Positions 2,578 through 34,598 of a stretch of 34,598 bases of DNA are shown here, in pieces. Within the stretch, counting starts at the first letter, position 1. Each line of letters begins with the position of its first letter. The notes below the pieces were generated by a model, which searched no databases, was not told the DNA's origin, and saw only the letters and a list, made by a program, of their open reading frames with translations. This DNA comes from Catajapyx aquilonaris (taxonomy: Eukaryota), in assembly GCA_000934665.2 (NCBI GenBank), contig JYFJ02004120.1, positions 1-34,598 of the forward strand, read 5' to 3'. Both the position numbers and the translations under genes were made by a program.

Positions 2578-2805
2578 AGCATTTGTTTAAACACATGTGG
2601 ATTGGACTCGAGGTTCTGAAGAATCCAATCAACTATACATGGAGTGATGGTACTCGTGTCATGGATGAGGGAAATCTCCCTTGGGGACCCGGTGAACCCA
2701 ACAGTGATGAAGAGAAGTGCGGAGAAATGACCTACACTGGGCACTTGAACGATAACAGTTGCTCCAATGAAATTAACTTTGCCTGTAAATTAACAGACGT
2801 GACAG
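2578..2805 (+). CDS. CTLD C-half exon C1, unit 1 (EPN..LND)
   Basis: ttttcag|AG...ACAG|gtaaat, 228 nt; HMWIGL..WSDG..GEPNSDEEKC..LNDNSC..NFACK. Confidence 0.9.
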
Positions 2806-5800
2806 GTAAATATGGGTGTTAATACTGATATTTTCATGTCCTTAGAAATGTTTTACATGGATTGGTTCCATTTTTAGGAACATGTCCGCGCAACTGGAAC
2901 ACAATAAACACGAATTGCTACTTCTTTTCGACTGTCAAGCTCAGTTGGAATAAGGCGAATGTAACGTGCAAGAGCAAGGAAGAAAGTGCAGATTTGGTCA
3001 GACTCAGTTACGAAGGGGAGCAGTCTGAACTAGCAAGTAAGTCATTCTTAGACAAAGAATTACCTATGGCTTCAACATAAATAAAAAATCACTGTAATTA
3101 ACCTGGACTGTTTTTGAGGTGAAATGGTTGAATCTGTTTGGATGGCCGTAGAAGCTAACATAGAGACAAATGAGTCAATAATTTGAAAATATGTTAAAAC
3201 TTGAACCAACAAAGTCACAAAGGTTTATTACTTTATCCTGAATGGAATATCATTTTGTCCAATATTTATTCTGATGTACTCTCATTGATGTGCCAGAAAA
3301 CTGTCTTTGTCTATTAGAGCAGATTCCACATTGCAGTAACTTACATTAATTTTTGAACATGTGTTGCCAGTGTTCAATATAGTTCGTTAAAATTGCATAT
3401 TTCAATTTTCAGAGCATATGTATGATCACATGTGGATTGGACTCGAGGTTCTGAAGAATATAATCTACTTTGGATGGAGTGATGGTACTCCAGTGGATGA
3501 GGAAAATCTCCATTGGAAAGAGGGTGAACCCAGCCGGAATGGAGAGGAGTGCGTAGAATTATTCTGGAATGGGAACTTGAACGATATTATGTGCAGCATG
3601 GAATTGAACTTTATCTGCAAATTAACAAACCCAGAGGGTAAATATGAGTGTTAATAATGATATTTTCAGGTCCTTAGAAATGTTTTACATGGAATGGTTC
3701 CATTTTTAGGAGCATGTCCGCCTGACTACTGGAAGACTATAAGTACGAGTTGCTACTACTTTTCAACTGTCAAGCGCAATTGGACAGCTGCAATTACTTA
3801 TTGCAAGAGCATGCAAGAAAGTGCAGATTTGGCCAGTTTCCATTACAAAGAAGAGCAGTCTGAACTAAAAAGTAAGTCATTCTTAGACGAAGTACCTATG
3901 GCTTCAACATAAATAAAAAATCACTGTAATTTACCTGGACTCTTTTCCAGGTATAGTGCTTGACACATTAACCACCTCTGAATATTTTTTTCCCGTTGGA
4001 GACGACGCTGCGTTACCTGGCAACCCCTGCCTGCGGGCAAATTCAAACATCAGCATATGGAGAGTGCTGAGTGTTCTTTTCATTGTTGTCACTGTTTACA
4101 AAGAGAGAGTGACGCAGACACCCCAACGACGGGTCTCAGCCTGCTTACACATCAGTAGCAAGGGATACGCAGGGAAAAACGGGAAAATTATGATGTTAGA
4201 AGCAATCCTCTTTGGGAAAAGGTTCCCCGCTGGACTCAAAGAAAGGTTTCCGTCCACAGCACACGTAATTCCATCCGGCATAGGAGAGCGGGGCACACCC
4301 CTTAATGGGGAAGTAGCCTTGGTCTGGGATTTGGGATTTTTGTTCATAACTAGCTAGCCCATGCCTGTAAACATACATTCCATCACTTTGTTGCATCAAA
4401 ATGACATTACTGAATAAATTACGGCACATGTAAAAGTGCCTTCAAAATTGGCGGGAAAAATGCCCCGGCCGGGTGGTGCCAATCGAAAGGGTACACCGAA
4501 ATGCCTGGTTGACTGCGAGATATGAGGAATTTGACTTTGAATTATCCGCGGACACGACGGAAAGCATTCGCAAGGCGGCTGCAGGCCAGCGAGGTGGAGA
4601 AAGGGGGCCCTCATGTGCTGAATCTGGGTGACAGATAATTCCAACCTGGTGGCATCACTGCCATGTACAAAGCGGCTTGAGCGACCTGGAATAAATACGC
4701 GCCCCGGCCGCTATCTTGCTCACGGAATGGGACGGTTGCTAACAACAGCAAAGCATTTTACGACAATGACGGGGCGCGTTCTATAACACCATTTTTGCGT
4801 TCATTTCACTTCGCGTGACGTCAACATTTTCTAGGCTAACAGTGACGTCACCATTAGCCTACATAAAAACCCCAATTACTCCGGAACTGAAACTGATATC
4901 TTAAAACGGAATATGCCAAAAAAATCCAAAAAATATGGGCGAATTTATTATGTAGTTTCCAAAATGAAGGCTACTTCCCCATTAACATCAGGGGTGCACT
5001 ACTTGAAAGTGCGTCAACTGACCGATTCTTTTGGTTCTTGCGTCTTTTCCCTCGTAAGTCGACACCTCTAAGACGAATGGAGACCATCCCCTGTATATCA
5101 GACATCATGTCAGTCTCACCTATAATTGTCTCCAACCCCTGTACAGTATACGTGATGTCATGTTAGTCCTGTACCTCGTGTCATTCGCGTCATATTCGCG
5201 CCAGGAAGAACTTCCTGGCGCGAATATGATTGGCACGTACTCTTATATGGGGAGGCCATTTTGAAATACGACATCTTATGGGGACAAATTACGAGACAGA
5301 CACGGTTCTGACATACCCCCTGCAGCAAGCAATATGGGGGCAACATTGGGGCAACATTGGGGAAGCCGGCGCAACATAGCCCAATATGGCCGATGTTCAG
5401 CCGTGATGTCCATGGGGACAGACACAGCAGAATATCGGGCCAAGATTGCGCCAACATGGAACGCCAGTGCGGGCTAATATGTGAAACATTGGCCGAACAT
5501 GGAAATCCATGTTCGGCCAATATTTGCTGCCTAGGTTGCAAGCCATGATGGGCCCACATAGGCGACATTGGCCCATCAACACCACCACGCCTACATTGCC
5601 ATGATTAAGCCGCCATTGCGGACATTGCGGACATTGCCAAGAAATTTAGCCATCCATTAGCCGATCTTGCGGATACATCGGCTCCACATAGGCAACATTG
5701 GCCAGTTGCAGCCATGTGGGCGTATGACTGGCAGCTTCCCTCGTCCGGATGGCGCTGCCTGTCGGTGTATTGTTGCAAGTCTTCTCCGATTTATCCCACA

Positions 5801-8800
5801 ACAATGCGAATTAATCTTGGCGATTACCCGTGTGTAAAAGTAGCAGGAAACTCCACTGCATGCGGCTCATTTACCCCCGAGGTACTTCATTGTGACATTA
5901 ATTTGCTCGAGTCGTTCGATGGCAAAGCTTATGGTGCGAGCAGGACAATCCGCTGTATGGAAAGGCGGTCATATAATTACTCTATCTCATACGCTTCTCG
6001 GTCTCTGGCTAAATAAAAGATAAAGGCACCCATTGAGTGGTCCTCTCGGACGAACTCGAGCATTGCGCCATTGCCTGCCAATGTTGGGATATATCGAGAA
6101 AAGTTGCAGCGGGCAACATTGCAGATTGCACCAATGACGGTGGCCAATGATGTCCCAATATGTATTTTCCAACATTTTTTGGCGTTTTTTTTCAGTTCAC
6201 GTGGATAGAGGACACGATCTCAAAGGAACCCAAGTGGAGATTTTCAGGGTCTCAACTCTCAAGCTGCTACCTTCAACCTCCGACCTCCGTGTATTTTCCA
6301 ACATTGGCTCCATGTTGGGTTGCCCATGTTGGGGTTGCCCATATTGGGCCACGTCCGCCTCCCAATGTTGGGATATATCGAGAAAAGTTGCAGCGGGCAA
6401 CATTGCACCAATGATGGTGGGCAATGCTGGCCCATTAATGGTTTCCATGTTGTAGCCAATATTGCCCCAATATAGATTGCTGATGGGGACAGGGCATGGT
6501 CTCCATACGTCTTAGGGGTGGTCTAATTATGCGGAAAAGACACAAAAACCGAAAGGATCAGTCAGTTGACGAACTTTCAATTAGCCCACCCCTGATCTTA
6601 ATTGACAACCCCTCCTCATGGGTGGAATATATTTCGTGTGCTGTGGGCGACAACCTTTCTATGGCTATTTTCTCACGAGGCCACCCTGGACGCGCCTAGG
6701 TGGCACCACCACGTCTTTGCAATTCTGCAAGTGGAGCCTTTCGCACGTGGTGGTTGGCAGTGCTGCCCACGCGCAGCCAGAAATGATTGTGGGGGGCAGG
6801 GTGACTTTCGACGCTCCAGCCTCTGCCAGCTGGCTGCATCGCCACGTGTTTGCATTGAATCATATGAAGCCTTTCACAGGAGACCCGACTTTTCTTACGG
6901 CCAGCTGTGCCGACTAATTTATGCGGCAGAGCTGCCATGGTGTGAAAGTAGCCTTTCAGTCCAGTGATAATTTTCCCAAAGTGGATTGCTTCTAACAGCA
7001 TTATTTTCCCTGTTTTTCCTGCATATTCCTGCAGGTACTGTGTAAGCAGGTAGAGACCCGTCGTTGAGTCGTCCGCGTCGCCCTCCATCTCTGTAAACAG
7101 TGGCAACAATAGAAAGGACACTAAGGACTCTCCATATGCTGATGTTCGAATTGTCCCGCCGGCCAAGGTTGCCAAGAAACACAGTGCCGTTGCCAACGGA
7201 AAAAAAACATTCAGCGACAGCTAATGTGTCCAGCACTGTATGTATAACGGTTGAAGCGATTTGGATGGACATAGAAGCTAACGTAGAGACAAATAAGTCA
7301 ATAATTTGCAAATATATTAAAACTTGAACTAACCAATTCACGAAGGTTTATTGCATTATCCTGTAAAGATTATCATTTTGCCCAATATTTATTCTGATGT
7401 ACTCTCATTGATGTGTCAGGAAACTGTCTTTGTCTATTGGAGAAGATTCCGTATTACAATAACTGACATTAATTTTTGAACATGGGTTGCCGGTGTTCAA
7501 TACATTCCTTTGAATTGCATATTTCAATTTTCAGAACATTTGTTTGAACACTTTTGGATTGGACTCGAGGTTCTCAAACCAATCTACTTTGGATGGAGTG
7601 ATGGTACTCCAGTGGATGAGGAAAATCTCCATTGGCTGACGCTTGAACCCAGCGGGGGTGGAGAGGAGTGCGTAGAAATATACAAGAAAGGGGAATTGAA
7701 CGATGCTGGGTGCTCCTTGCCATTGAACTTTATCTGCAAATTAACAAACCCAAACGGTAAATATGAGTGTTAATAATGATATTTTCAGGTCCTTAGAAAT
7801 GTTTTACATGGATTGGTTCCATTTTTAGGAACATGTCCGCCTGACTGGAAGACTATAAGAATGAGTTGCTACTACTTTTCAACTGACAAGCTCAATTGGG
7901 AGGATGCGAAGGAAAGGTGCAAGACCAAGCTGCAAGGAAGTGCAGATTTGGTCAGTTTCCGTTACAAAGAAGAGCAGTCTGAACTAAAAAGTAAGTCATT
8001 CTTAGACAAAGTACCTATGGCTTCAACATAAATAAAAAATCACTGTAATTTACCTGGACTGTTTTTGAGGTGTAGTGCTTGACACATTAGCCACCTCTGA
8101 ATGTTTTCTTCCCCGTTGGAGACGACGCTGCGTTACCTGGCAACCCCTGCCGGCAGGGCAATTCAAACATCAGCATATGGAGGGTGCTTAGTGTTCTTTC
8201 CATTGTCGTCACTGTTTACAAAGAGAGAGTGATGCAGACACCCCAACGACGGGTCCCAGCCTGCTTACACATCAGTAGCAAGGGATACGCAGGGAAAAAC
8301 GGGAAAATTATGATGTTAGAAGCAATCCACTTTGGGAAAAGGTTCCCCGCTGGACTCAAAGAAAGGTTTCCGTCCACAGCACACGTAATTCCATCCGGCA
8401 TAGGAGAGCGGGGCACACCCCTTAATTAACATCAGGGGTGCACTACTTGAAAGTGCGTCAACTGACCGATTCTTTCTTGTTTTTGTGTCTTTTCCCTCGT
8501 AAGTCGACACCTCTAAGACGAATGGAGACCATGCCCTGTATGTCAGACACCGCGTCTGTCTCACCTATTATCGTGTCCAACCTGTGTACAGGGTACGGGA
8601 TATCATGTTAGTCCTATACACTATACACTATACACTATGCAACGCAACATAACTATGCAACACCTCCCCCAGTAGAAACAAACTTATGGTACGTAGTCTT
8701 CCAAAGCTGTGGGAAGCTGCTGGGCCCTCTGCGGTCGTCACTCCGGCCGCGGTGCAGACACGGGACTCCCGTCTGTGAACTCTGGATCTGCCTTTGGTAT

Positions 8801-11800
8801 CCTAGGGCGCATATGGTCCACATGCCGACGCATCTCCTGTCTGGCAGATGTAACAGTACTGTTGGTCCTGGGGCCTTCAACTGCAGACACCACTCCAGGG
8901 ATCCATGACTCCGGTTTCTTGATGAAATCTTGCACGTAAACAGCGTATCCCGGTTCGAAGTGTGGGTCCTGTGACGTTTAAGAATGATACTTTCTCTCTA
9001 GTCTGATGGTCATTTCCTCAGACAAATCCGGATACAATCGGTCGAGGGCAGTGTGAATCCTCCGACCCATTAACATCTCCGATGGCGACCGTCCTGTAGA
9101 TGATGTTGGTGTCGTGTGGTGTGCTAGCAAAAATCGAGCAACTTTCATCTTAATGTCACCTTCACTCATCTTCGCCAGCGCCTCCTTTGTAGTCTGTACC
9201 ATTCTTTCTGCTTGTCCATTAGAAGCTGGATGATACGGTGGCACTAGAATTTGACGAATGACATTCTTCTCTGCAAACTCTTGCATCTCTCGCGAAGCAA
9301 ATGTTGCACCGTTGTCGGTAACCATAACATCGGGCAGACCGTGCGTTGCAAACAGTCTACGTAGCTCAATGATGGTGGATGTAGCGGACATCGAGCGCAT
9401 GGGCAGCACCTCCAGCCACTTGGAGTACACGTCCACTACAATCAAATAAACGACACCGTTGTGTGGTCCCGCGAAGTCCATGTGTAAGCGGGACCATGGT
9501 TTCTTGGGGTACTCCCAAGGATGTACTGGGGCTTTTGGTGGCAAGTGCCGTGTAGCTTGACACTTGTCACAAAGGTGAACGAATTGTTCCACTTCTTTGT
9601 CCAGTGGACGCCACCACAGATAGCTACGTGCTGATGCCTTTATGTGGCTTATGCCCGGGTGTCCCGCATGAAGTAACGTCAATGTGTCCTTCCTGGCTTG
9701 AGCAGGGATGACAACGCGAGTACCCCATAGCACGCACCCATTGTGAACAGACAATTCAGATGACCTTGTCCAGTACGGTAGCAGCTCCAAGTCATCAGGT
9801 TTGCTTGTAGGCCATCCCGAGAGACAGTAGCGCAGAACCTTATTCAAAGTTTGGTCCTTTGTGGTAAGTGCGGCAATGGATTTCGCACCCAGGGGAGACT
9901 GCGGAACGTATTCCAGTAGCAAGACTTCCATAGGGTCAGGTACAGCACAGTCAGGAACCTTCAGAGGTAATCTGCTGAGCCCATCTGCGTGTCCAATCTT
10001 CTCTCCTGGTCGGTGTACTTGCGTATAATTGTAGAACGCCAGCATTAGGATCCAACTCAACATTCTGGGGGAAACTACTGTTGGAATGGGTTTGGCAGAC
10101 TGCAGTATAGTCCCAGCAATGGCTTGTGGTCAGTAACAAGAGTGAACGTACGTCCAGCTAAGTATCTGTGGAAATGTTTCACCCCGTACACCAGTGCGAG
10201 AGCCTCCCTGTCTAACTGAGAAAAGTTTCTTTCACTCCCATGTAATGTGCGGGAAGCAAAAGCAATGGGGGCCTCGTGACCATCTGGAAGTAGGTGAGAA
10301 AGTGCCGACCCTACCCCGTACGGTGAAGCGTCGCAAGCTAGCAGCAAGGGTTTCTTTTCGTCGTAATGCACAAGTACCTCCAGCACTCTTTCCTTTGCCG
10401 CCTCGAACACCTTCTGGTGGTCCTTGGACCAATTCCACTTCGCCTTCTCATCTAGGAGTCGACATAATGGCTCCAACAGGGTAGCTCTATCCTTGAAGAA
10501 TGTCCCGCAAAAATTTAACAGACCCAAGAATGAGCGCAGTTCCTTCACGTTTGTAGGTTAAGGTGCTGCTCTGATGGCTTCTACCTTGTCCTTGGCCTGG
10601 TGCGTCCCAGCAGCATCTATCTGATAGCCCAGGAAACGAACAGTCATCCACTCCAAAAGCACATTTCGTAGCGTTGACCTTCAGTCCAGCATCTTGCAAG
10701 AAGTGTTTGTCCCAGTCCATTTACCACCACCAAAGGCAGCGTAGTTTTCTTCCCCTGGTGCTTTACCTTCATGTCTGCAACACCTTTCATTTGTATAGTG
10801 TTTGATGACCCCACGCCTGTAGCACCACAGAGGCACAGACGTAGGACGTAGTGTGGGTGGATTAACTGGCCACAACCGTTGAAAAGTGTCCGTTCCAATT
10901 ATGGACACATCTGCACCGGAATCGACTATCATGTCGACTTGTCTACCCTGCAGCAACAAACGCGTCTTGCATTTAGGTGTGGTTTGAGTTGTTCCCACCT
11001 GGTAAATATCGTACATCTTTCCATCCACGGAGAGGGTTGGCACTTCATTTGTCTCCACCAAAGTTGGCTTTGATCCTTCTGCATTTGTTGTTCTCTTGGA
11101 CATGGATGAAGCAGTCATCACGTCTTACCAGCAGACTTCTTCTTTAGCAAACAAACTTTCTCCATGTGGCCCAGTTTCTTGCAGAAGTTGCATGTAATGC
11201 CCTTCCTTTTGATGTGGCCTTGATGATTGCCTTGTGATGTGGGCTGCCGCAGCGGTAGCACACAATCTTGGTATAGCTTCGACCCTGCACACCTCTTTGA
11301 CACGCAGAGAAGCAGAATCCTGCTCTGCTGTTTCTACAGCAGCAGCAATTTTGTGTGCCATGTCGAAAGTGAGAGTAGTGTCCTCCAGCAACTTACGCTG
11401 AATCTTCTCATCTGCAATACCCACCACAAGCTGATCTCTCAGTCGATCACTAATTATGTCCGAGAAGTTGCAGTGTTCCGTCAGTCTACGTAAGTCGTTC
11501 ACATAATCACTAACAGATTCTCCTAGCTGCTGAAGTCGACGGTGAAACTTGCATCGCTGCACAATCTCTGACGGTGTGGGGTTGAAGTGGACTCCTACTG
11601 CAGCTCTGACATCATTGTAAGACATGTCAGACAGTTTCTTCGGAGCTACCACTGCACGTATGGTATGGAAAGTACAGAAAGTACAGAACTTGTCAGTGTC
11701 GTGCTTACGTTGGGGCGTAACAAGCTACGGCCTTATTTTTATTGTTGCTACGCTCAAGAGCACATCCTGGAGGCCCGGCGCAGTGGCCACATGACAGCAG

Positions 11801-26800: not shown

Positions 26801-29800
26801 TCCTTGCGATGATGAACATCACTTTGTCTGCAAAAGAGCTCTGCAAGGTACGGACATTTTATTTACAAAATAATCTACCATCACGTTACTGCGCTTTTAA
26901 TGAAGCCAATCCATGTCCGTCTGGATGGATCAGAAATGACACTAGATGTTACAACTTATCTCGAGATAAACTGCAATGACTCCCGCCTCTTCAGGAATGT
27001 GGCAGTTTAGACGAACTAGCTATTCTGGTTACAATGGTTGACGAAAGTGAATACAACTTTGGTAAAGCAACATGCGATATGTACAGTAGCACATTTAAAA
27101 CCTTTGAATAGCTCATCTTTACGGTGTCTAGGATCAGTTTCCCATTATCCGACACCCATGTCATTAGCCCGGATAATCGGGAGGACAGCGTAATTCCAGC
27201 GTGGGTAAGAATCCTTGCTTTCACATGCACTAGGGTAAGATACGCTTACTTCCTACACTTTTCTTCGACTGGCAAGTTTAGGATTGCGTAAGACTACTTT
27301 ATTGCCAAGGACAAGTCAGCGATATGGTCTACTACGCTATTTAAATTGAATGTACGTAATCTCTCCACAGCATTGAAGCTGTTCTCAGCACAAATTGTTC
27401 CAATCGTTTTACACAATCCTCATGTATGGAGTCTTGATTATTTATGAGATATGGAACGATTGCAGCTGTTCTATATCAAGCGATGTTTCTCCCACCGAAC
27501 AGGGCAAACTACTTTGTACGTTTAGAATCCGGCCGCTGCACTTTATCGGTCAATGTCTTCAAATTTATGCTTAAATGGCTGATCAGCCTAACAATCATGT
27601 CATAAGAGCGTATGACCAGTTTCTGAAGAGATGTTTCGATTATGCGGTGAAGAAGAGATTACTGTACAAAGCTAACTGGATTAACAAAGTCGCTTCTCTT
27701 TTGTCAAAAGCAGGCAGTACATGGGACAGTTGGTCGAGTTCTCCATCCTTACCTGTAGCTCCCACATTGACAGCCCAATACGTATATGCCACCATTAAAA
27801 ACGATTATGCAGAATTAAGGGACTCTTCCAGATACGAGAATTACGCCGAACAATTTTTTGTTATAAATTTATTTATATCCCATTGGGAGAATCGGCGCTC
27901 CATTAGGGGCGTGGGGTACCCCCATTGGATGGGGCCAAGGATAGGGAAGGAAGGTGGCTATTATACGGAAACAACCCCGGAATTATCCTAGAAAGACGGT
28001 GGTAAACCACGGTCAGGGTTGCTGGCCCCAGGATTCGAACCCAGGACCTTCCGATTAGCAGGGGAGGTCCTTAACAACCACACCCACTTGCTTCGGTGTT
28101 AGTGAATATTATGACGGCAGATATTCAAACCAACAGCTGCTGGGTGTAGCATGAATATTGCAACACTATGAGCCAACATGTGGCAAGAAAAGCTTCTTTT
28201 TAAAGCATCCATGTTTTGATCGTTTTTGCAAATATTTATTTGGCGCATCATGAGCAAATATGCACCAATTTTTCCTCGATTCAAATTGTATAAAAACTGG
28301 AAGCGTCTGCTCCAGCACAGTCAGTCGAGATCTGTTTGCTCAGCAGTGCAGAAATGTGTTACTGTTGTGCAATAGGTTGGATAGGTTTCCTGCATTATTT
28401 TATTGGCTGCAAATTTTTACACAGTTGTTATAATAGAGCTCTTCTTGTAAGTGTGTCTTTCCCGTTGTATTAACAGAGAGCAAGCCATGTCCCGAAGATT
28501 GGGAATACTACGGAGATCACTGCTATCAAATCCATAAAAAACCACAACCATGGAACGATGTTGTGAAGACTTGCCGAAACTTATACCCTGCTGGAGCTGA
28601 CATGGCCAGTTTCCACAGTGATATAGAAGCTAACGTGGTGACAAGTAAGTCAATTATTTGCAAGTATATTAAAACTTGAACTAACAAAATTACAAAGGTT
28701 TATCGCATTATTCTGTATGGAATATCATTTTGTCCAATATTTATTCTGATGTATTCTCATTGATGTGTCAGAAAATTGTCTTTGTCTATTAGACAAGATT
28801 CGATATTACAGTACTTTAATTTTTGAACATGTGCTGTTGGTGTCCCATACATTCCGTTGAATTGCATGTTTCAATTTTCAGAGTATTTGTATACACGCAT
28901 GTGGATTGGACTCCAGTACCTGGGGAAGACAGGCGGATTGGCATGGAGTGATGGTACTCAAGTGTATGAGGATTATCTCACTTGGAAGGATAATAAGAAA
29001 CCCGACTCTCCTGAAGAGAAGTGCATCGAACTAGTCCTAAAGAAAACTGATTACACAAACAACATCGAAACAGTGACATTGAATGACAATAACTGCGACA
29101 GGCAATTTAACTTTGCCTGCAAATTAACAAACGTGGCAGGTAAATATTGGTGTTAACAAGGATATTTTCATGTCCGTAGAAATATTTTACAGGGATTGAT
29201 TCCATTTTTAGAAGGATGTCCGACTGGCTGGAAGGGTCGAGGGTCGAGTTGCTACTACTTTTCTACTTCATCGACCACATGGACAGAGGCAAGGAAGTAT
29301 TGCGTGGAAAAGAAAAGTGCAGATTTGGTCAGCTTCAATGACAAAGGGGAGCAGTCTTTCCTCGGAAGTAAGTCATTCTTTGACAAAGAATAACGTACAA
29401 CTTCAGCATAAATTAAAAATTATTGTAATTAATCTGGACTGGTTTTCAGGTGAAATGGTTCAAGACTTTTGGATAGGCTATTATTACCATGAGGGATGGT
29501 GGTGGGCGGACAAAAGCCCAGTTGATTACGTGAGATGGAAAGAAGGCCAGGCCGATGATTTAGAAAATGGACGCTGTACCCACGTACTTGTCGCAAATAA
29601 GTGGGTCAACCATCCATGCCAATATAAGCGTCCCTTTGTCTGCAAATTCCCTGTGCAAGGTACGGACATTATATTTACAAATGTATCATCACAGTACTGC
29701 ACATTTAATATTATAGACGGCAATTCACTACCGAGTTACTGGCGCTGGTCCAGAATTGGTCCGAAACTGACAATCCAAACGTGACTGCCTGATTGCCTGC

Positions 29801-32800
29801 TTGTTATTACTTTAGGATACTGCCGTTTATTAACATTCGAACCTCCATCAACCCCCAATAAGATGGTCAGTTACATGATTCTTGTAGGAAAACTGACGTA
29901 TAATGTGCTGATGAAAATACACTGTACCGGTACTCCCGATTATCCGTGCATCGCCAAATGAAAGTCAGAATAATGTTAATAAGTCTCATAAACGAAATTT
30001 TTTTACAGGTTTTATCTAGAAGACAAACTAAAATCTATGCCCTATGGTACCATGGTTTATCATTTGTGATTTTCAATTTTATTAGTTAATTTCTTTATAT
30101 GGCAATAAACATGTATGCTGCTTTCTGTAAGGTTTAATCAAAATAATAGAACTTACCATCTAGATTTTTAGTTTGTCTTCTATAAAAAAGTCTGTTATAT
30201 TTCTTCGTTTGCGAAACGCATTGATATATTTTTGGACTTATTATTTGAATCTAATTTTTTAGTGAAGGCAGAACCAGTATACTAGTGTGACCGTAATGAG
30301 GTGCACAAAGATATGGGTTCAAGTTCAGTACAGTTTATTTGCCGAAGTGAAAAGGGTAGGTAAAAAGGAAAGGGAAGGAGAGAGGGAATGACCAGTGGCC
30401 AGCATGGGGTTCCATGCAGGGAGAGGGAGAGAATCCATTCAGATGGCAGTCGACTGGGGCGTCCGGAAGGAACTGGACCTGCTTTGTATTCAAGAACCTC
30501 ACATTTCATCTGTGCAGCACAAGAGGAGCTTCTCGACTGATGCGGAGTCAGGTGACAGGGTTGCCTTGGTAATAATTAATAGGGATCTGCGAGTGGTATG
30601 GTTGGAGGACCTCTCGACTTGGAGGAGTGGGAGTTGGAGATCTGGAATTTCTACTGGCCGCAATTTACTTGGCCCCAAGGCTCTCGTTAGGTTGGATAGT
30701 AACATCCTTTCCTGGAGCTCTGATATAGGTTATTATGGGCGACTTCAATGCTCGTGCCACGTATTGGGGAGACAGATTCGACAATTGCCGAGGACACCAG
30801 GTCATCGATTGGGCTGTGCGCTGGGACCTTTCCCTTCCCACCAACCCGACGCAGGGCCCAATGTTTGTCTCCCCCAACGGCCAGAGCTATATTGACCTGA
30901 ACTGGGTTCGGGGATTTCACGCGACAGATTGACGAATCACCAATGTGACAAATGCGCCAACATGTGGGAAGGAAAACTTCTTTTTAAACCATAATCAAAC
31001 GTGCACCGTTTCTTCATTAATTCAAATCGTATACAAACTCGGAAGCGTCTGCTCCAGCACAGTCTGTCGAGATCTGTTTGCTCACCAGGGCAGAAGTATG
31101 TTACTGTTGTGTCAGTACAATAGTTTGCACATTTCATGCATTATTATCTTATTGACTGCAAATTTTCACGCAGGTTGTTATGATAGAGCTCTCCTTGTAA
31201 GCGTGTCTTTCCCGTTGTATTAACAGGGAGCAACAGGTTGTGTCCCAACCATTGGATAGACTACGGAGATAACTGCTATCGCATTTCTCAAGATAAACGA
31301 ACATGGGCCCATGCTCGACAGGCCTGCCAAGAATTAGCATGTGGAACTGATTTGGCCAGCATACACAGTGATGTGGAAGCTGACGGAGTGTCAGGTAAGT
31401 CAATAATTTGCAAATATATTAAAACTCTAAGCAACAAAGTCACAAATGTTTATCACATTATCCTGTATGGATTTTGTCCAATATTTATTCTGATAATGTA
31501 CTCTCATTGATGTGTCAGAAAACTGTCTTTGTCCATTAGAGATGATTCTATATTTCAGCATGTTCATATTTGAACATGTTTTTCCGCTGTTCAATACATT
31601 CTTTTGAAGTGCATATTTCAATTTCCAGTGCCTTTGTATGGGCACTTGTGGATTGGACTCAATTCCCGAGATGAATATACATGGAGTGATGGTACTCAAG
31701 TGAATGAGAATAATGTCCAGTGGGAGGTAAGTCTAGGTCAACCCAACTCTGAAGCCGAGAAGTGCGCAGTACTATTCGCATCAGGGCGATTGCATGACTA
31801 CGACTGCGAAAATGAATATGCCTTTGTCTGCAAATTTAAAAACCAGACAGGTAAATAATGGTGTTAATGATGATACGTTCAGGTCCACAGAAATAATGTT
31901 TTACATGGAATGGTTCCATTTTTAGGAGATTGTCCGGCTGACTGGATCTGGAGGAGAGAATCGAGTTGCTACCACTTTTCTCATATCAAGACCACCTGGA
32001 AAGAGGCGAGGGACTATTGCGTGAAATTAAAGGAAGGTGCCGATTTGGTCAGTTTCAGTGATGACAAGGAGCAGTCTGAACTAGCAAGTAAGTCATTCTT
32101 AGACAAAGAATTACCTATGGCTTCTACATAAATAAAAAAAAGTACTGTAATTAACCTGCCCTGTTTTTCAGGTAAAGTTTCAGACACTGATTTTACGGAC
32201 GAAAATGGGAATGGTAAGTCAATAATTAGCAAATATATTAAAAACTTGAACTAGCAAAGTCTCAAAGGTTTATTGCATTATCCTGTATGGAATATTATTT
32301 TGTCTGATATTCATTCTGATGTACTCTCATTGATCTGTCAGAAAACTGTGTTTGTCTATTAGAGAAGAATCTATATTACAGTAGGCCTACTTTAATTTTT
32401 GAACGTGTGTTGCTGGTGTTCAGTACATTCCGTTGAATTTCATCTTTAAATTTTCAGAGATTCCGTCTTTTATAACGTGGACTGGATTCAATTCCCTGGA
32501 CCTATGGACATATAGTGATGGTAATAAAGTGGTTGACGATACTCTCACTTGGGAGACAGGTGAACCCAGCACTGCTAAAAAGCAGTGCATAGAAATAATC
32601 TTAGATAGTGCTGGCCAAAGAGGGTATTTGAAGAGCAGTACCTGCGACAGGCAGTTTAACTTTGCCTGCGAATTTACAACCGAGACAGGTAAATATGGCT
32701 GTTAATAATGATATTTTCAGGTCCGTAGAAATGTTGGATTTGTTACATTTTTAGGAGCGTGTCCGACTGACTGGAAGATAAGAGAATCGACTTGCTACTA

Positions 32801-34598
32801 CTTCTCGACTTTCAAAGCCAATTGGACGGATGCGAGGAATTTTTGCTTGCTATATAAAGGTGCAGATTTGGTCAGCTTCCGTGACAAAGGGGATCAGTCT
32901 GAAGTAGCAAGTAAGTCGTTCTTAGACAAAGAATTACCATACGACTTCAACATCAATAAAAAATTACTGTAATTAACCTGGACTGTTTTTCAGGTGAAAT
33001 GATTTCAGAAGGTTGGATAGGCCTTCATTACAAATCTTCTGATAGGCAATGGGGGTGGTCAGATGGAAGTGCAGTTGACTACTTCAGATGGGACCTAAAC
33101 GATAAAAATGTGGATAACGAGCAGTGTACCGTGGCACTTTTCTCTAAACAATGGAAGAACATTGATTGCCAGCTGAAACGTCCCTTTGTCTGCAAATTAG
33201 GTACGGACATTTTATTTACAAATGTAGCTATCATCACATTAATCGGGAGGACAGTGTAATGTCAGGGTGTTGGGCCACCATGTGTTGTACTGCAGGCTAC
33301 ATGCATTTTCATTTTCTCCGTAGCAAAACGCCTCCCGACATGCAATAATGAATGGCCCTGCGTGAAGAAGAGGCAGTGCAAGGATGAGGAACCCCCGTGC
33401 CTCTTGTGTGGGGCCGTAGATCAACCCTCGTGTCATCACGACGTTTGCCTCAAGGCATGTCCTTGCGGAAGCCGTGCACCGTACAGTAACTCCACGGAGT
33501 ACGCTAATGGTAGTGCGTGCAAAGACGAGTGCGCCAAACTCCACGAACCGTGCTATTCTTGGTGCGACAAGCTAGGACCCTTGAAAGCCAGATGCAGGAA
33601 TGATTGTGATGGCAACAGGGACTTGTGCGACGACGTCTGCGATTCCCAAATGAGTGCAGGCGCCAAGATGTGCGAGGAATGTACTAAGACTTGCGATGAG
33701 TGTAACAGAAGGTGCTGCTCTGCCTCGGAGCTGCCGTGCATTGAGAGCAGCTGCTGGGAACAACCGCAAAATGCACTCGTCATTCCTTCCGACGGAGCAA
33801 ATCTGGCGGATTGCAAAAGGGTGATGAACCCATTCAGACCTCTTGATGGACCTGACGAAAAATGCGTGATCAAGGCAGGGAACTGCGAGGCAGGAGAAAC
33901 CCCCTGCAACGTGGATCAATGCAGAGAGAACGATGCAACCTGCAAGCGCTTTGAGGGTGCGAATATGACTAAGCGATATTGCAATCTGGACGAGGTGCCA
34001 TGCACCCCTACCTGTGAGACCCTCGCTTGCGGACAGAGAGAGTGCAACGCCACCGAGATTGAGATTCCATGTGCGCTGGAGCCAGTTCCGTGCGCATATC
34101 TTGAGGCACCCTGCTATCACATTGGCGAAAGATACGAAACCTACCAGCTTCCCTGCCAGCTGGGCCAGATTCCGTGTGTGATGGGACTTAAATGCATGAT
34201 GAAAAAGGAAAGTCCTTGCACCATATGCGGAAGGAAAGGCCATCCCAACTGCAAAGATGTAGTGAAACCGTGTAGCCGTCTCAACGAGGTGCCATGCAGA
34301 CGGCCGGAAGCGTGCAAGGAAGGAGAAACACCATGCGAGGGGCTGGCCTGCAAGGGCCATTTGCCTTGCCTGAAGGCACGTCTGTGCGATTATGAAGAGA
34401 GGCAGTGTGTCCCGTGCGGCCGCAAAGGAGAACCACCATGCGATTGGATGACCTGCAAGCGGTTGTGCAAATCGGAGAGATGCCGGAGGGATTGTGAGGT
34501 TTGCCATACGTGTGACAACGGTGAGATCCCGTGCGCCCCGAGGTTGCCGTGTCACACCAGGAAATGCGCACAACTTTACCCAGATTGTGACTTTGATA
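2578..34598 (+). CDS. Multi-exon gene(s) for a tandem C-type lectin domain protein (macrophage mannose receptor-like), with at least 16 complete CTLDs and a Cys-rich C-terminal region; 5' and 3' ends lie outside the window
   Basis: Alternating N-half (CPxxW..CYYFS..W..A..C..ADL.S) and C-half (WIGL..WSDG..W..EP..C..C..NFxCK) exons. All are bounded by AG/GT, are phase 1-1 and have lengths divisible by 3. Whether this is a single transcript is inferred, not shown. Confidence 0.85.
2878..3036 (+). CDS. CTLD N-half exon N2, unit 1
   Basis: tttttag|GA...GCAA|gtaagt, 159 nt; TCPRNW..NCYFFS..W..C..ADLV. Confidence 0.9.
3119..3169 (+). pseudogene. Relic fusion microexon (C2 start + N1 end) with a dead donor; copies at ~7243 (split by a TE), 16839, 18498, 20614, 21447, 22642, 24356, 25826
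   Basis: Reads GEMVESVWMAVEANIET. The 5' part matches the C2 start GEMVQDFW (29450) and the 3' part matches the N1 end DIEANVVT (28644). The donor position reads atgagt/ataagt instead of gtaagt. Confidence 0.8.
3413..3637 (+). CDS. CTLD C-half exon C1, unit 2 (EPS..LND)
   Basis: cag|..|gtaaat, 225 nt, open frame with WIGL and 3 conserved Cys. Confidence 0.9.
3710..3871 (+). CDS. CTLD N-half exon N2, unit 2
   Basis: tag|..|gtaagt, 162 nt; ACPPDYW..CYYFS. Confidence 0.9.
4307..4980. mobile_element. MITE with 14-bp TIR and AT target duplication (ISL2EU/PHIS-like)
   Basis: GGGGAAGTAGCCTT...AAGGCTACTTCCCC. The empty site cttaattaac is visible in the paralogous arm at 8421-8430, implying a 2-bp AT duplication. 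Family assignment is inferred from the GG termini and AT TSD. Confidence 0.8.
5317..6488. mobile_element. Non-autonomous CMC/EnSpm-like element (CCCC termini, 2-bp TSD, subterminal CAACATTGG-type repeats)
   Basis: ac|CCCCTGCAGCAAGCAATAT...ATATAGATTGCTGATGGGG|ac. The empty site tctgacatacagggcat is the reverse complement of 8531-8547. Many caacattgg / ccaatgttg motifs point inward from both ends. Confidence 0.75.
7535..7756 (+). CDS. CTLD C-half exon C1, unit 3 (EPS..LND)
   Basis: cag|..|gtaaat, 222 nt, open. Confidence 0.9.
7829..7990 (+). CDS. CTLD N-half exon N2, unit 3
   Basis: tag|..|gtaagt, 162 nt; TCPPDW..CYYFS. Confidence 0.9.
8073..8615. mobile_element. Second, truncated copy (left arm only) of the 3954-7238 foldback element
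   Basis: Near-identical to 3954-4306 plus 4981-5170, at the same position relative to the upstream exon, and without the 4307-4980 MITE. Confidence 0.85.
8617..11655 (-). mobile_element. Degenerate Ty3/Gypsy (K02A2.6/Mag-like) element: gag, protease, deleted RT, RNase H, integrase, PPT and truncated 3' LTR
   Basis: gag RRLQQLGESVSDYV..LRDQLVVG and CCHC knuckle CNFCKKLGHMEKVC; protease IVDSGADVSII; RNase H LACDASPYGVG..TDHKPL; integrase HHCC plus DFAGP..TDNG..NGQAER (8978-10063). Minus-strand GGGGGAGG|TGTTGCA at 8670-8656. Most of RT is missing. Confidence 0.92.
11760..12256 (+). pseudogene. Tc1-like DDE transposase C-terminal fragment
   Basis: MDAEGYVNILENDLLP (11866-) then, frameshifted, WPSYSPHLNPIENLWGMM...SMPQRL..V..KGGHSKY*, which matches the Tc1 WPxxSPDLNPIENxW motif. 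Confidence 0.85.
12979..13243 (-). repeat. 3' LTR
   Basis: Direct repeat of 15354-15618, with TG...CA ends. Confidence 0.92.
13431..13454 (+). repeat. (GAT)8 microsatellite
   Basis: gatgatgatgatgatgatgatgat. Confidence 0.95.
13486..14106 (-). CDS. Retropepsin-like aspartic protease ORF of the LTR element
   Basis: HTALLDSGAVTSMVS (DSG active site) and VILAADFM (ILGxDF-like). The first ATG is at MASFRIEEP. Confidence 0.7.
   Translation of the reverse strand: MKHPYAYELHYVQVVRMASFRIEEPDTSMITAATIAVLVHGIPHTALLDSGAVTSMVSIAAWDSIPRHSRPQLEPAPPTKLRMADVHLVRPYGRTTLTLTMGNITFQKTFLVVRRGVLPVILAADFMAALGCHLDFQCLYLSGIIYSEADFPRLHTFFMPFQLFEEMKLPPSGRDYGRHRRSYKKRKQRDTCSWTTRSFGAPSSVS
15327..15349 (-). other. Primer-binding site (tRNA-Leu-like)
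   Basis: Plus strand ttcaaatcgcacttccgacgcca versus the typical tRNA-Leu 3' end ttcgaatcccacttctgacacca, 4 nt from the LTR. Confidence 0.7.
15354..15618 (-). repeat. 5' LTR
   Basis: Direct repeat of 12979-13243, adjacent to the PBS. Confidence 0.92.
16304..16525 (+). CDS. CTLD C-half exon C1, unit 4 (QPS..LYD)
   Basis: cag|..|gtaaat, 222 nt, open. Confidence 0.9.
16598..16756 (+). CDS. CTLD N-half exon N2, unit 4
   Basis: tag|..|gtaagt, 159 nt. Confidence 0.9.
16921..17745. mobile_element. Solo LTR (825 bp)
   Basis: aaac|TGTC...GACA|aaac interrupts the conserved intron sequence atattaaaacttgaact, giving a 4-bp TSD. Confidence 0.8.
17960..18184 (+). CDS. CTLD C-half exon C1, unit 5 (EPS..IRT)
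   Basis: cag|..|gtaaat, 225 nt, open. Confidence 0.9.
18257..18415 (+). CDS. CTLD N-half exon N2, unit 5
   Basis: tag|..ACTA|gtaagt, 159 nt. Confidence 0.9.
18684..19961. mobile_element. Non-autonomous TIR element, PIF/Harbinger-like
   Basis: 41-bp TIR AGGTCT(G/A)AACTCATATCGACTTGAAACTACGACTTGTGCGT with one mismatch. Flanks are TAA / TTA. It interrupts the conserved tgtctattagagaag. Confidence 0.8.
20055..20303 (+). CDS. CTLD C-half exon C1, unit 6 (TPT..VRY)
   Basis: cag|..|gtaaat, 249 nt, open. Confidence 0.9.
20376..20531 (+). CDS. CTLD N-half exon N2, unit 6
   Basis: tag|..GCAG|gtaagt, 156 nt. Confidence 0.9.
20906..21136 (+). CDS. CTLD C-half exon C1, unit 7 (EPK..LNY)
   Basis: tag|..|gtaaat, 231 nt, open. 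Confidence 0.9.
21203..21364 (+). CDS. CTLD N-half exon N2, unit 7 (shifted acceptor)
   Basis: gttccag|TTTCACAAGCATGT.., 162 nt; VSQACPRDWRRIEKNCYYFS. Absent from the ORF track. Confidence 0.85.
21737..21976 (+). CDS. CTLD C-half exon C1, unit 8 (EPT..LQY)
   Basis: cag|..ACAG|gtacaa, 240 nt, open. Confidence 0.9.
22027..22363 (-). mobile_element. tRNA-derived SINE with poly(A) tail and 18-bp TSD
   Basis: TSD tgtccttagaaatgtttt at 22009-22026 and 22364-22381. Minus-strand A-box TGGCGCCGCGG and B-box GGTTCAATCCC. T-run at the left end. Confidence 0.88.
22404..22559 (+). CDS. CTLD N-half exon N2, unit 8
   Basis: tag|..TCAA|gtaagt, 156 nt; ECLLDWWRIKTSCYYFS, open. Absent from the ORF track. 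Confidence 0.88.
22802..23680. mobile_element. Rearranged mariner (DD34D-type) derivative
   Basis: TIRs (c)taggggccttcataaagtt / aactttatgaacgcccctca|TA. Minus-strand remnants HDNTSAH..PGLAPGNFILFCHLKQPLRG and MDECCVYHYNLETK. The transposase C-terminus is present in both orientations. Confidence 0.85.
23815..24045 (+). CDS. CTLD C-half exon C1, unit 9 (EPT..LNY)
   Basis: cag|..|gtaaat, 231 nt, open. Confidence 0.9.
24112..24273 (+). CDS. CTLD N-half exon N2, unit 9 (shifted acceptor)
   Basis: gttccag|TTTCACAAGCATGT.., 162 nt; VSQACPPDWRWIETNCYYFS. Confidence 0.85.
24429..25054. mobile_element. Tc1/mariner-derived foldback MITE (626 bp, ~200-bp arms)
   Basis: ca|CAGGGTGATTCTC...GAGAATCACCCTG|ca. 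Arms 24429-24633 and 24851-25054 are inverted. Central remnant LKGCVYKNNPRTIDAL. Confidence 0.85.
25276..25518 (+). CDS. CTLD C-half exon C1, unit 10 (APT..LKY)
   Basis: ccag|..|gtaaat, 243 nt, open. Confidence 0.9.
25585..25743 (+). CDS. CTLD N-half exon N2, unit 10 (shifted acceptor)
   Basis: gttccag|TTCCTCAAACATGT.., 159 nt; VPQTCLPDW. Confidence 0.85.
26095..26319 (+). CDS. CTLD C-half exon C1, unit 11
   Basis: cag|..|gtaagt, 225 nt, open. Confidence 0.9.
26395..26553 (+). CDS. CTLD N-half exon N2, unit 11
   Basis: tag|..|gtaagt, 159 nt. Confidence 0.9.
26629..26847 (+). CDS. CTLD C-half exon type C2, copy a (EPN..WSD, mannose-type site)
   Basis: cag|GTGATATG..CAAG|gtacgg, 219 nt; VWIGL..WSDG..KEPNC..C..WSDLPC..FVCK. 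Confidence 0.9.
26906..27061 (+). pseudogene. Orphan CTLD N-half exon (type N3) with a premature stop
   Basis: gaag|CC..TTTG|gtaaag, 156 nt; NPCPSGWIRNDTRCYNLSRDKLQ*LPPLQEC. TGA (26977-26979) sits at the conserved Trp position, and no partner C-half follows. Confidence 0.75.
27230..27860 (+). mobile_element. Degraded non-LTR (LINE) ORF2 C-terminal remnant
   Basis: Frameshifted LKLFSAQIVPIVLHNPHVW, MERLQLFYIKR and FVRLESGR, resembling the post-RT region of LINE ORF2. Boundaries approximate. Confidence 0.55.
27861..28098 (-). mobile_element. tRNA-derived SINE
   Basis: Minus-strand B-box GGTTCGAATCC (~28031-28041) downstream of an A-box-like GGTGTGGTTG, followed by a non-tRNA body. Confidence 0.65.
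28477..28644 (+). CDS. CTLD N-half exon type N1, copy a
   Basis: taacag|AG..ACAA|gtaagt, 168 nt; KPCPEDWEYYGDHCYQI..W..C..ADMASFHSDIEANVVT. Absent from the ORF track. Confidence 0.9.
28882..29139 (+). CDS. CTLD C-half exon C1, unit 12 (KPD..LND)
   Basis: cag|..|gtaaat, 258 nt, open. Confidence 0.9.
29212..29367 (+). CDS. CTLD N-half exon N2, unit 12
   Basis: tag|..|gtaagt, 156 nt. Confidence 0.9.
29450..29659 (+). CDS. CTLD C-half exon type C2, copy b
   Basis: cag|GTGAAATG..CAAG|gtacgg, 210 nt; FWIGY..W..C..WVNHPC..FVCK. Confidence 0.9.
29926..30279. mobile_element. Old AT-rich foldback MITE
   Basis: tagaagacaaactaaaatcta (~30016-30036) is inverted to tagatttttagtttgtcttcta (~30160-30182), with weaker similarity further out. 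Ends taccggt / accagta. Confidence 0.4.
30400..30932 (+). mobile_element. Non-LTR retrotransposon APE endonuclease fragment
   Basis: LDLLCIQEP and, frameshifted, MGDFNARATYWG..NCRG..SYIDL, which are the QE, GDFN and S.ID motifs of LINE AP-like endonucleases. Confidence 0.8.
31227..31394 (+). CDS. CTLD N-half exon type N1, copy b
   Basis: taacag|GG..TCAG|gtaagt, 168 nt; LCPNHWIDYGDNCY..LASIHSDVEADGVS. The upstream intron is paralogous to 28150-28476. Confidence 0.9.
31629..31850 (+). CDS. CTLD C-half exon C1, unit 13 (QPN..LHD)
   Basis: ccag|..ACAG|gtaaat, 222 nt, open. Confidence 0.9.
31926..32087 (+). CDS. CTLD N-half exon N2, unit 13
   Basis: tag|..|gtaagt, 162 nt. Confidence 0.9.
32172..32213 (+). 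CDS. Candidate 42-nt in-frame microexon (KVSDTDFTDENGN)
   Basis: tttttcag|GT..AATG|gtaagt; phase 1-1 and open, at the position where other units carry the dead relic. Confidence 0.6.
32458..32688 (+). CDS. CTLD C-half exon C1, unit 14 (EPS..LKS)
   Basis: cag|..|gtaaat, 231 nt, open. Confidence 0.9.
32755..32910 (+). CDS. CTLD N-half exon N2, unit 14
   Basis: tag|..|gtaagt, 156 nt; ACPTDWKIRESTCYYFS. Absent from the ORF track. Confidence 0.9.
32994..33200 (+). CDS. CTLD C-half exon type C2, copy c
   Basis: cag|GTGAAATG..TTAG|gtacgg, 207 nt; GWIGL..WSDG..C..WKNIDC..FVCK. Confidence 0.9.
33324..34598 (+). CDS. Large cysteine-rich exon (at least 425 codons, about 65 Cys), open to the window end
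   Basis: ttttctccgtag|CA AAA CGC, phase 1, matching the donor at 33200. Manual translation AKRLPTCNNEWPCVKKRQCKDEEPPCLLCG...CDNGEIPCAPRLPCHTRKCAQLYPDCDFD has no stop and a recurrent E/Q-x-P-C motif. Confidence 0.85.

Follow-up and report, generated by a model that had tools for sequence, protein, structure and literature searches.

We present the analysis of a 34,598-nucleotide (nt) stretch of DNA from Catajapyx aquilonaris (contig JYFJ02004120.1, assembly GCA_000934665.2; hereinafter the window, by which we mean this whole stretch). We propose, with a probability of about 0.68, that it is the middle of one very large, constitutively spliced animal gene for a long chain of C-type lectin-like domains (CTLDs), which has been diversified in cis and is probably followed by a cysteine-rich region. 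The gene extends beyond the window on either side, and its predicted product is a secreted or surface multi-CTLD protein. It is probably ordinary in its splicing and of interest chiefly for its evolutionary mode.

The exons were sought by a mechanical scan for intervals bounded by AG and GT, divisible by three in length and open in the frame expected between two phase-1 introns, with a filter for CTLD motifs; the peptides thus obtained were run by tblastn against the window, and the exon ends were collected in a boundary table. The scan and tblastn together returned 34 matches, all on the + strand, comprising 17 exons for the second half of a CTLD (C-halves) and 17 for the first half (N-halves), one of the latter being dead. 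The 17 C-halves and 16 intact N-halves, recovered by the scan, tblastn and the boundary table, follow each other in strict C,N,C,N alternation from 2578 to 33200. AG before the exon, GT after it and a length divisible by three are found in 33/33 intact exons in the boundary table, and all 33 conform to the rule for class 1-1 modules, namely phase-1 introns on both sides of an exon divisible by three. The C-halves measure 207-258 nt and the N-halves 156-168 nt; there are many different lengths, each of them divisible by three, and hence the frame has been preserved through many insertions and deletions. The splice-site contexts are near-identical across the array, with donors of the form GTAAGT or GTAAAT and acceptors made up of a T-rich tract and CAG or TAG, all of uniformly strong consensus, and the introns leading from a C-half to the next N-half are 66-75 nt long. 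The phase agreement of the 33 exons is inherited from one ancestral module and does not represent 33 independent events; what goes beyond chance is that the frame, the six-cysteine framework and the splice sites have been retained despite divergence in sequence.

Each CTLD is made up of an N-half and the C-half that follows it, and the intron inside the domain lies after the third cysteine, a few codons before the WIGL motif. The C-half at 2578 has its own N-half upstream of the window, which therefore encodes at least 16 complete CTLDs and a leading half-domain. The 33 CTLD exons alone provide about 2150 stop-free codons, and when joined by script to the predicted exon that follows them they give 2575 codons with 0 stops. 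An earlier note on this DNA had described precisely this anatomy (16 intact N-halves and 17 C-halves with AG/GT borders, phase 1-1 and lengths divisible by three) and a default chain of at least 16 CTLDs, and both descriptions hold. Its count of 136 possible combinations of an N-half with a downstream C-half was likewise borne out, as 136/136 such joins were found by script to be in frame with no stop in the junction codon.

A long-form CTLD is recognized by a framework of six cysteines and a WIGL motif, both of which are present here. Exons were scanned singly against Pfam, where the Lectin_C family (PF00059) has a curated cut-off of 22.6 bits. Lectin_C matched 17/17 C-halves over about positions 39-107 of the profile, 16 of them above the cut-off, and 5/16 N-halves over profile positions 2-31, one of them above the cut-off. 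For two further N-halves the sole match was to UL45, a C-type lectin-like family, below its own cut-off, and the scan gave no family match for the other 9/16. Since the matches cover different parts of the profile, the two exon types are complementary parts of one and the same CTLD. The N-half framework has three cysteines in the arrangement CP..W..CY.F, and the C-half spans the region from WIGL to the last cysteine. Exactly three cysteines are found in 15/16 N-halves and 16/17 C-halves, with four in each of the remaining two exons; in the alignment of the C-halves 17/17 share the W and G of WIGL, and the three cysteine columns are likewise invariant.

Canonical sugar binding through calcium site 2 requires an EPN or QPD tripeptide together with a WND motif, and this set is absent as such from the alignment of the 17 C-halves. 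EPN together with an ND pair (as LND) occurs solely in the C-half at 2578; partial versions are seen at 26629 (EPN with WSD) and 31629 (QPN with LHD), and most other C-halves have EPS, EPT or APT and NY, KY or RT at these positions. Because most of the domains are without the canonical motifs, their binding of sugars is doubtful, which leaves their membership of the fold unaffected. Many of them may bind non-canonical ligands or serve as spacers.

The halves come in two types. Type-A N-halves (N_A) read CPxDWK..SCYYFST and type-A C-halves (C_A) HLFxHMWIGL...NFACKLTNV; type-B N-halves (N_B) read CPEDWEYYGDHCY..ASFHSD and type-B C-halves (C_B) xMVxxxWIGLHY...PFVCK. The exons of the array are listed below with the evidence for each; the contig cited is a spliced one from the run X5, described further on.

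2578-2805, + strand, C-half, type A (scan, tblastn, boundary table; Lectin_C 36.4 bits; N-half upstream of the window)
2878-3036, + strand, N-half, type A (scan, tblastn, boundary table)
3413-3637, + strand, C-half, type A (scan, boundary table, Pfam)
3710-3871, + strand, N-half, type A (scan, boundary table)
7535-7756, + strand, C-half, type A (scan, boundary table, Pfam)
7829-7990, + strand, N-half, type A (scan, boundary table)
16304-16525, + strand, C-half, type A (scan, boundary table, Pfam)
16598-16756, + strand, N-half, type A (scan, boundary table)
17960-18184, + strand, C-half, type A (scan, boundary table, Pfam)
18257-18415, + strand, N-half, type A (scan, boundary table)
20055-20303, + strand, C-half, type A (scan, boundary table, Pfam)
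20376-20531, + strand, N-half, type A (scan, boundary table, Pfam scan)
20906-21136, + strand, C-half, type A (scan, boundary table, Pfam)
21203-21364, + strand, N-half, type A (scan, boundary table, Pfam scan)
21737-21976, + strand, C-half, type A, with a short interspersed element (SINE) in the short intron that follows (scan, boundary table, Pfam)
22404-22559, + strand, N-half, type A (scan, boundary table)
23815-24045, + strand, C-half, type A (scan, boundary table, Pfam)
24112-24273, + strand, N-half, type A (scan, boundary table, Pfam scan)
25276-25518, + strand, C-half, type A (scan, boundary table, Pfam)
25585-25743, + strand, N-half, type A (scan, boundary table)
26095-26319, + strand, C-half, type A (scan, boundary table; Lectin_C 20.9 bits, below the cut-off)
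26395-26553, + strand, N-half, type A, followed by a type-B C-half (scan, boundary table)
26629-26847, + strand, C-half, type B, donor used in the X5 spliced contig (scan, boundary table, Pfam, contig)
26906-27061, + strand, dead N-half-like pseudo-exon with an in-frame stop (tblastn, boundary table; skipped by the X5 spliced contig)
28477-28644, + strand, N-half, type B, acceptor used in the X5 spliced contig (scan, boundary table, contig)
28882-29139, + strand, C-half, type A (scan, boundary table, Pfam)
29212-29367, + strand, N-half, type A (scan, boundary table, Pfam scan)
29450-29659, + strand, C-half, type B (tblastn, boundary table, Pfam)
31227-31394, + strand, N-half, type B (scan, boundary table)
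31629-31850, + strand, C-half, type A (scan, boundary table, Pfam)
31926-32087, + strand, N-half, type A (scan, boundary table, Pfam scan)
32458-32688, + strand, C-half, type A, with WIGL degenerate to WTGF (tblastn, boundary table, Pfam)
32755-32910, + strand, N-half, type A (scan, boundary table)
32994-33200, + strand, C-half, type B, the last CTLD exon of the window (scan, boundary table, Pfam)

The introns of this array preserve a record of how it grew. In its 3' part the exons are ordered N_A, C_B, N_B, C_A, from which it follows that the original domains were N_A+C_B and N_B+C_A. Every intron between an N_A and a C_A exon is a version of one 374-nt core, of which positions 1-107 align with the three N_A-to-C_B introns and the opening 10-24 nt of C_B, and positions 109-374 align with the last 19-25 nt of the N_B exon and the N_B-to-C_A introns. 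At the junction lies a fossil of about 55 nt, in which the start of a C_B exon is joined to the end of an N_B exon; its length is not divisible by three, and some copies have a stop or have lost the GT. One example is placed as follows.

3119-3173 (approximate ends), + strand, fossil in an N_A-to-C_A intron, made up of about the first 27 nt of C_B and about the last 25 nt of N_B

Ten of the 11 N_A-to-C_A introns are colinear across the fossil junction, and in the eleventh this region has been replaced by a long-terminal-repeat (LTR) element. Given this colinearity, the two-exon, one-CTLD unit N_A+C_A is evidently derived by internal deletion from a four-exon, two-CTLD unit. The array grew by tandem DNA duplication from an ancestral unit of four exons and two CTLDs (N_A+C_B and N_B+C_A), in which a single deletion, beginning about 24 nt inside C_B and stopping about 25 nt short of the N_B 3' end, removed one domain-length of DNA. 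N_A was thereby spliced directly to C_A as a chimeric CTLD, and the two-exon unit, fossil included, was then tandemly amplified at least 11 times. Neighbouring units are most alike, and insertions of transposable elements are private to units and lie at different intron positions; these would represent the last step. As judged from these alignments, the simplest history is evidently one in which the chimera of half-domains was made once in evolution, by DNA rearrangement, and was then amplified. The half-domain swap at the DNA level, which really happened, is the kernel of truth in the earlier idea that the halves are mixed and matched. The pseudo-exon at 26906-27061 lies only 58 nt 3' of a C_B exon, as against 1.4-1.6 kb for the working N_B exons behind theirs, and may be a remnant of an older unit.

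The divergence that followed amplification was measured over the 91 pairs formed by 14 type-A units, with neither the B-type exons nor the pseudo-exon included. Mean pairwise identity is 66.5% for the C-half exons and 71.6% for the N-half exons, as against 89.6% for the 72-nt C-to-N intron (78 pairs, the SINE-bearing intron being excluded), 86.7% for the first 82 nt and 83.1% for the last 90 nt of the N-to-C intron (91 pairs each), and 81-87% in 10/10 pairs of five uninterrupted whole introns. Within the exons, codon positions 1 and 2 have diverged more than position 3, the values for positions 1/2/3 being 0.367/0.351/0.286 in C-halves and 0.290/0.309/0.254 in N-halves. Our own Nei-Gojobori-type counting, which gives uncorrected p-distances over non-independent pairs, yielded in C-halves a synonymous distance (pS) of 0.263 and a nonsynonymous distance (pN) of 0.354, with a median pN/pS of 1.39 and a ratio above 1 in 86% of pairs; the corresponding figures for N-halves are a pS of 0.290, a pN of 0.283 and a median ratio of about 1.0. 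Among codons that agree in their first two bases, the four-fold sites, which are few, differ at 0.125 in C-halves and 0.245 in N-halves. In seven disjoint pairs of units pN exceeds pS in 7/7, one of them marginally, and exceeds intron divergence in 7/7 by a factor of 1.45-2.61; the closest pair, 3413/7535, has a pN of 0.182, a pS of 0.062 and an intron divergence of 0.070. As pN is above both pS and intron divergence in all seven pairs, these figures point to diversifying selection among the repeats, which would act most strongly on the C-half with its binding loops. Since duplication, divergence in the coding parts has proceeded at about twice the pace of that in the introns, and most of it consists of amino-acid changes, which would reflect selection for a different binding partner in each domain; diversity would then lie in cis along one multivalent chain and would not be produced by splicing.

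Direct evidence on splicing comes from X5, a run of unrecorded kind from a sample other than that of the DNA runs X1-X3. None of the runs is recorded as RNA, and X5 leaves the greater part of the gene uncovered; neither point is taken as evidence. In a 232-nt X5 contig (depth 2.3), 26847 is directly followed by 28477, and the DNA between them has GT..AG ends; these are the predicted C_B donor and N_B acceptor of neighbouring intact exons, the dead exon 26906-27061 being skipped. This is the sole spliced junction seen, it is absent from X1-X3, and it is what an adjacent junction in a spliced transcript looks like. All introns being of phase 1, constitutive splicing of the exons in order yields one open chain as a computed reading, which would be the main mRNA form.

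The earlier note had raised combinatorial splicing as a candidate reading; if regulated, variable skipping of exon pairs would bring N-halves to C-halves other than their neighbours, for as many as 136 hybrid CTLDs and a changing number of domains, a repertoire comparable to that of Dscam. The in-frame character of all 136/136 N-to-downstream-C joins, none with a junction stop, would suit it, as would the retention of the cysteine framework in every half, the evolutionary viability of the hybrid N_A+C_A, the unusual conservation of intron sequence near splice sites, and the aptness of symmetrical modules divisible by three for exon skipping, as set out in PMC8001218. Yet the one observed junction joins neighbouring intact exons, and splice sites of uniformly strong consensus are those typical of constitutive exons. 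The C-to-N introns of 66-75 nt tie each C-half to the next N-half, and the introns are conserved along their full length (81-87%), as in young duplicates, and not in discrete regulatory elements alone. The Dscam1 clusters of arthropods resemble this array in having tandemly duplicated exons, some for half-domains, with similar splice contexts; their exons, however, are interchangeable versions of a single segment, of which docking and selector RNA pairing admits one at a time, whereas here two complementary types alternate and inclusion of all of them is coherent. No docking-type pairing was found in the sample tested: there is no inverted repeat of at least 14 nt in 20000-22000, and the fold of the 374-nt intron is no better than that of shuffled sequence (z = -1.18), though docking sites might be located beyond the window. 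We regard a Dscam-like repertoire as very improbable; mixing and matching by splicing in any form is permitted by the structure and pointed to by no result, and remains distinctly unlikely. About as improbable is the reading of the locus as a built-in diversity generator, in which skipping of exon pairs in RNA or unequal crossing-over in DNA, favored by the conserved introns, recombines the halves, as with the N_A+C_A chimera at least once, and positive selection drives them apart; if true, the one gene would furnish individuals or cells with hybrid lectin domains in differing sets. Of the view of the locus as a diversified lectin system, one part survives, in that the repeats carry a signature of diversifying selection, and the other does not, there being no sign of diversity made by splicing. 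Word searches of open-access text returned no paper on alternative splicing of half-CTLD exons and none on invertebrate arrays of more than 16 CTLDs.

The contrast between exons and introns could also have arisen from homogenisation of the introns, by gene conversion selected against in exons, or from constraint on minimal introns. The 72-nt intron is indeed the most conserved of all (89.6%, reaching 100% where the exons are about 75% identical), and the four-fold sites of C-halves (0.125) are close to the introns (0.10-0.17), so that the silent rate is not clearly raised. Nevertheless, the excess of pN over pS in 7/7 disjoint pairs and of codon positions 1 and 2 over position 3 lies within the exons and is independent of the introns, and the conservation covers entire introns of 370 nt with the functionless fossil included; as the whole explanation this is, in our estimation, unlikely. 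Slightly less so, and compatible with a constitutively spliced gene, is germline variation in copy number and hybrid domains through unequal crossing-over in the conserved introns, by which individuals would differ in how many CTLDs they have and of what make-up, diversity thus lying at the level of the population. Tandem duplication and one deletion of domain length form the very history of the locus, and introns 81-90% identical over hundreds of bases are known to be substrates for non-allelic recombination; against this, the DNA runs represent one sample and the joints seen in them are explained otherwise. The joints 17993->23855 and 17993->26135 were considered as deletion alleles and rejected, as they reflect WIGL-coding words shared by paralogous C exons, with 30-nt sides and high depth. 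The joint 27183->30161 in the X1-X3 contigs, which skips 2977 nt, or about one four-exon unit, was rejected as an unequal-crossover allele, as the two places are non-homologous, 26 foreign letters lie between them and the shorter side is 22 nt; it is probably a repeat copy from elsewhere. Least credible of all is a decaying pseudogene array or an assembly artefact. One N-half is dead, the introns are full of SINE and LTR-element insertions, and transcript support is minimal, but about 2150 codons in 33 exons are stop-free, every length change is divisible by three, the cysteine framework and splice sites are retained, and a spliced junction exists. A collapse or expansion of repeats in the assembly is unlikely, because introns of different units are 13-19% apart in sequence and each unit has transposable-element insertions of its own. 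Independent short-read (Logan) contigs from X1-X3, which are DNA runs of one sample, possibly the source of the assembly, cover 30/30 bins of the window; those of 344-1097 nt agree with stretches of exon and intron to within 0-4 differences, and attest to local order only.

Several points weigh against our proposal of a constitutively spliced, cis-diversified gene. The single spliced junction has a depth of 2.3 and comes from a run of unrecorded kind, and it could be mimicked in the X5 sample by a deletion allele or by a processed copy in the DNA. In a second X5 contig (21876-22013) the sequence continues past the donor at 21976 into the intron with the SINE, and this contig hence represents unspliced RNA or DNA. 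The window contains no full-length transcript, signal peptide or membrane anchor, the ends of the gene lying outside it. The join from 33200 to 33324 has a single argument behind it, an acceptor in the right phase. The four-fold divergence of N-halves (0.245, from about 8.5 sites in each pair) is not distinctly lower than their pN of 0.283, so that the selection signal in N-halves is weak. The alignments of the loops are uncertain, the pN and pS values come from home-made, uncorrected counting over non-independent pairs, and intron gene conversion or constraint on short introns could account for part of the exon/intron contrast.

At the 5' side, positions 2501-2577 are the tail of a usual N-to-C intron, and 1-2577 contain only this tail and pieces of retroelements. 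At the 3' side, the last C-half (donor at 33201) is followed by a pyrimidine tract and a TAG at 33322-33323, which form a phase-1 acceptor, and the frame from 33324 is open to the end of the window, over at least 1275 nt and 424 full codons.

33324-34598, + strand, predicted cysteine-rich exon, running off the window (phase-1 acceptor with pyrimidine tract and TAG)

The frame has 65 cysteines (15.3%), 21 PC dipeptides and a recurrent E-x-P-C motif. It gave no Pfam family at E values up to 10, no usable match in the ESM Atlas, no relative in the sequence search and only a chance-level match (E 0.25) in the PDB. The array probably continues into this region. On the opposite strand of the exon a 341-codon open frame (33572-34597) is seen, which is probably a by-product of codon composition.

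Several mobile elements were observed in and around the array. Upstream of the first exon, positions 2-1308 (- strand) hold the RVT_1 and RT_RNaseH pieces of an LTR element, and a tandem repeat with a period of 120 nt (1.9 copies, 91% matches) occupies 1989-2215. The 8.3-kb intron carries an LTR retrotransposon at 8978-12328 (- strand); its integrase (rve, Integrase_H2C2) lies at 8978-10129, frames like those of RNase H, protease and gag extend up to 12328, and a further LTR piece is found at 13486-14127 (- strand). Of all these LTR frames, the upstream ones included, three were scanned against Pfam. A tRNA-like SINE at 22027-22364, in reverse orientation with a poly-T at its left end, sits inside an otherwise 72-nt C-to-N intron between copies of a 17-nt target-site duplication (22010-22026 and 22365-22381). 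In the DNA runs its word depth exceeds that of the bins next to it by a factor of hundreds; from 22362, joints lead to about 24960, 27892 and 29957, a sign that other introns may hold further copies of the SINE. A 167-codon open frame at 30392-30895 (+ strand), inside a C_B-to-N_B intron, seems to resemble the endonuclease part of a non-LTR retrotransposon.

Among known systems, the mannose-receptor family (group VI: MRC1, MRC2/Endo180, PLA2R1, LY75/DEC-205) has 8-10 CTLDs in tandem in one chain, a minority of them with canonical sugar-site residues, preceded at the N-terminus by a ricin-type cysteine-rich domain and an FNII domain and followed by a transmembrane segment with a short tail. The present gene is alike in its tandem CTLDs and in the small number that have sugar-site residues, but has at least 16 CTLDs, each encoded by two phase-1 exons, and next to them, in place of a membrane anchor, a cysteine-rich exon of at least 424 codons, the 3' end being outside the window; no ricin-type or FNII domain is seen in the window, outside which the 5' end of the gene also lies. 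PMC514892 lists the group VI multi-CTLD receptors and a fish gene predicted in 2004, the Fugu 'DEC-205-FUSE', which has LCCL and FA58C domains in addition to its 15 CTLDs. When a profile built from the 17 C-halves was searched against 1.84 billion representatives, E<=0.001 was reached by 14146 proteins and E<=1e-30 by 264. Many of the top 150 are 1900-3300 residues long and match over 12-17 separate stretches, and Pfam found 12-16 Lectin_C domains in 8/8 of those scanned, with 16 in P0001 and P0007. That a chain of 16 CTLDs is exceptional is less tenable in view of these many predicted proteins and the 15-CTLD fish gene. The scanned mosaic proteins and the Fugu gene are comparable to the array in their number of tandem CTLDs; the former, however, are usually mixed with F5/8C, LCCL, PAN, Kringle, HYR or SUEL domains, none of which is seen between the CTLDs here. 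The identity of the representatives to the array is at most 49% over a half-domain, and the sequence search with a C-half found no relatives. Long multi-CTLD proteins are thus already known as predictions, and this locus appears, by its sequence, to have no close relatives among them.

Class 1-1 modules in the sense of Patthy, bounded by phase-1 introns, divisible by three and typical of extracellular metazoan domains (as described in PMC8001218), are matched by the exons of the array; the difference is that an additional phase-1 intron splits each CTLD, so that the half-domains are symmetrical too, and a half-domain swap has become fixed. With regard to the evolutionary mode, published accounts report coding sequence changing faster than non-coding, with amino-acid changes in excess, in the congerins, galectins of the conger eel (PMC3269628), and accelerated evolution of secreted binding proteins such as those of snake-venom genes (PMC2711939, PMC6062510). 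The array shares the faster change of coding than of non-coding sequence and the excess of amino-acid change, but the contrast in those cases is between paralogous genes and here it is between repeats within one gene.

Giant multi-CTLD genes have been predicted in many animal genomes and hardly studied. Combinatorial splicing of such a gene would be important if true. What the locus offers is a clean and datable record of the growth of an array, through deletion, formation of a chimera and amplification, in which amino-acid changes since the amplification have accumulated at about twice the rate of intron changes. If the signal of selection holds, the protein would be a chain of differing binding modules, representing a broadening of recognition encoded in cis.

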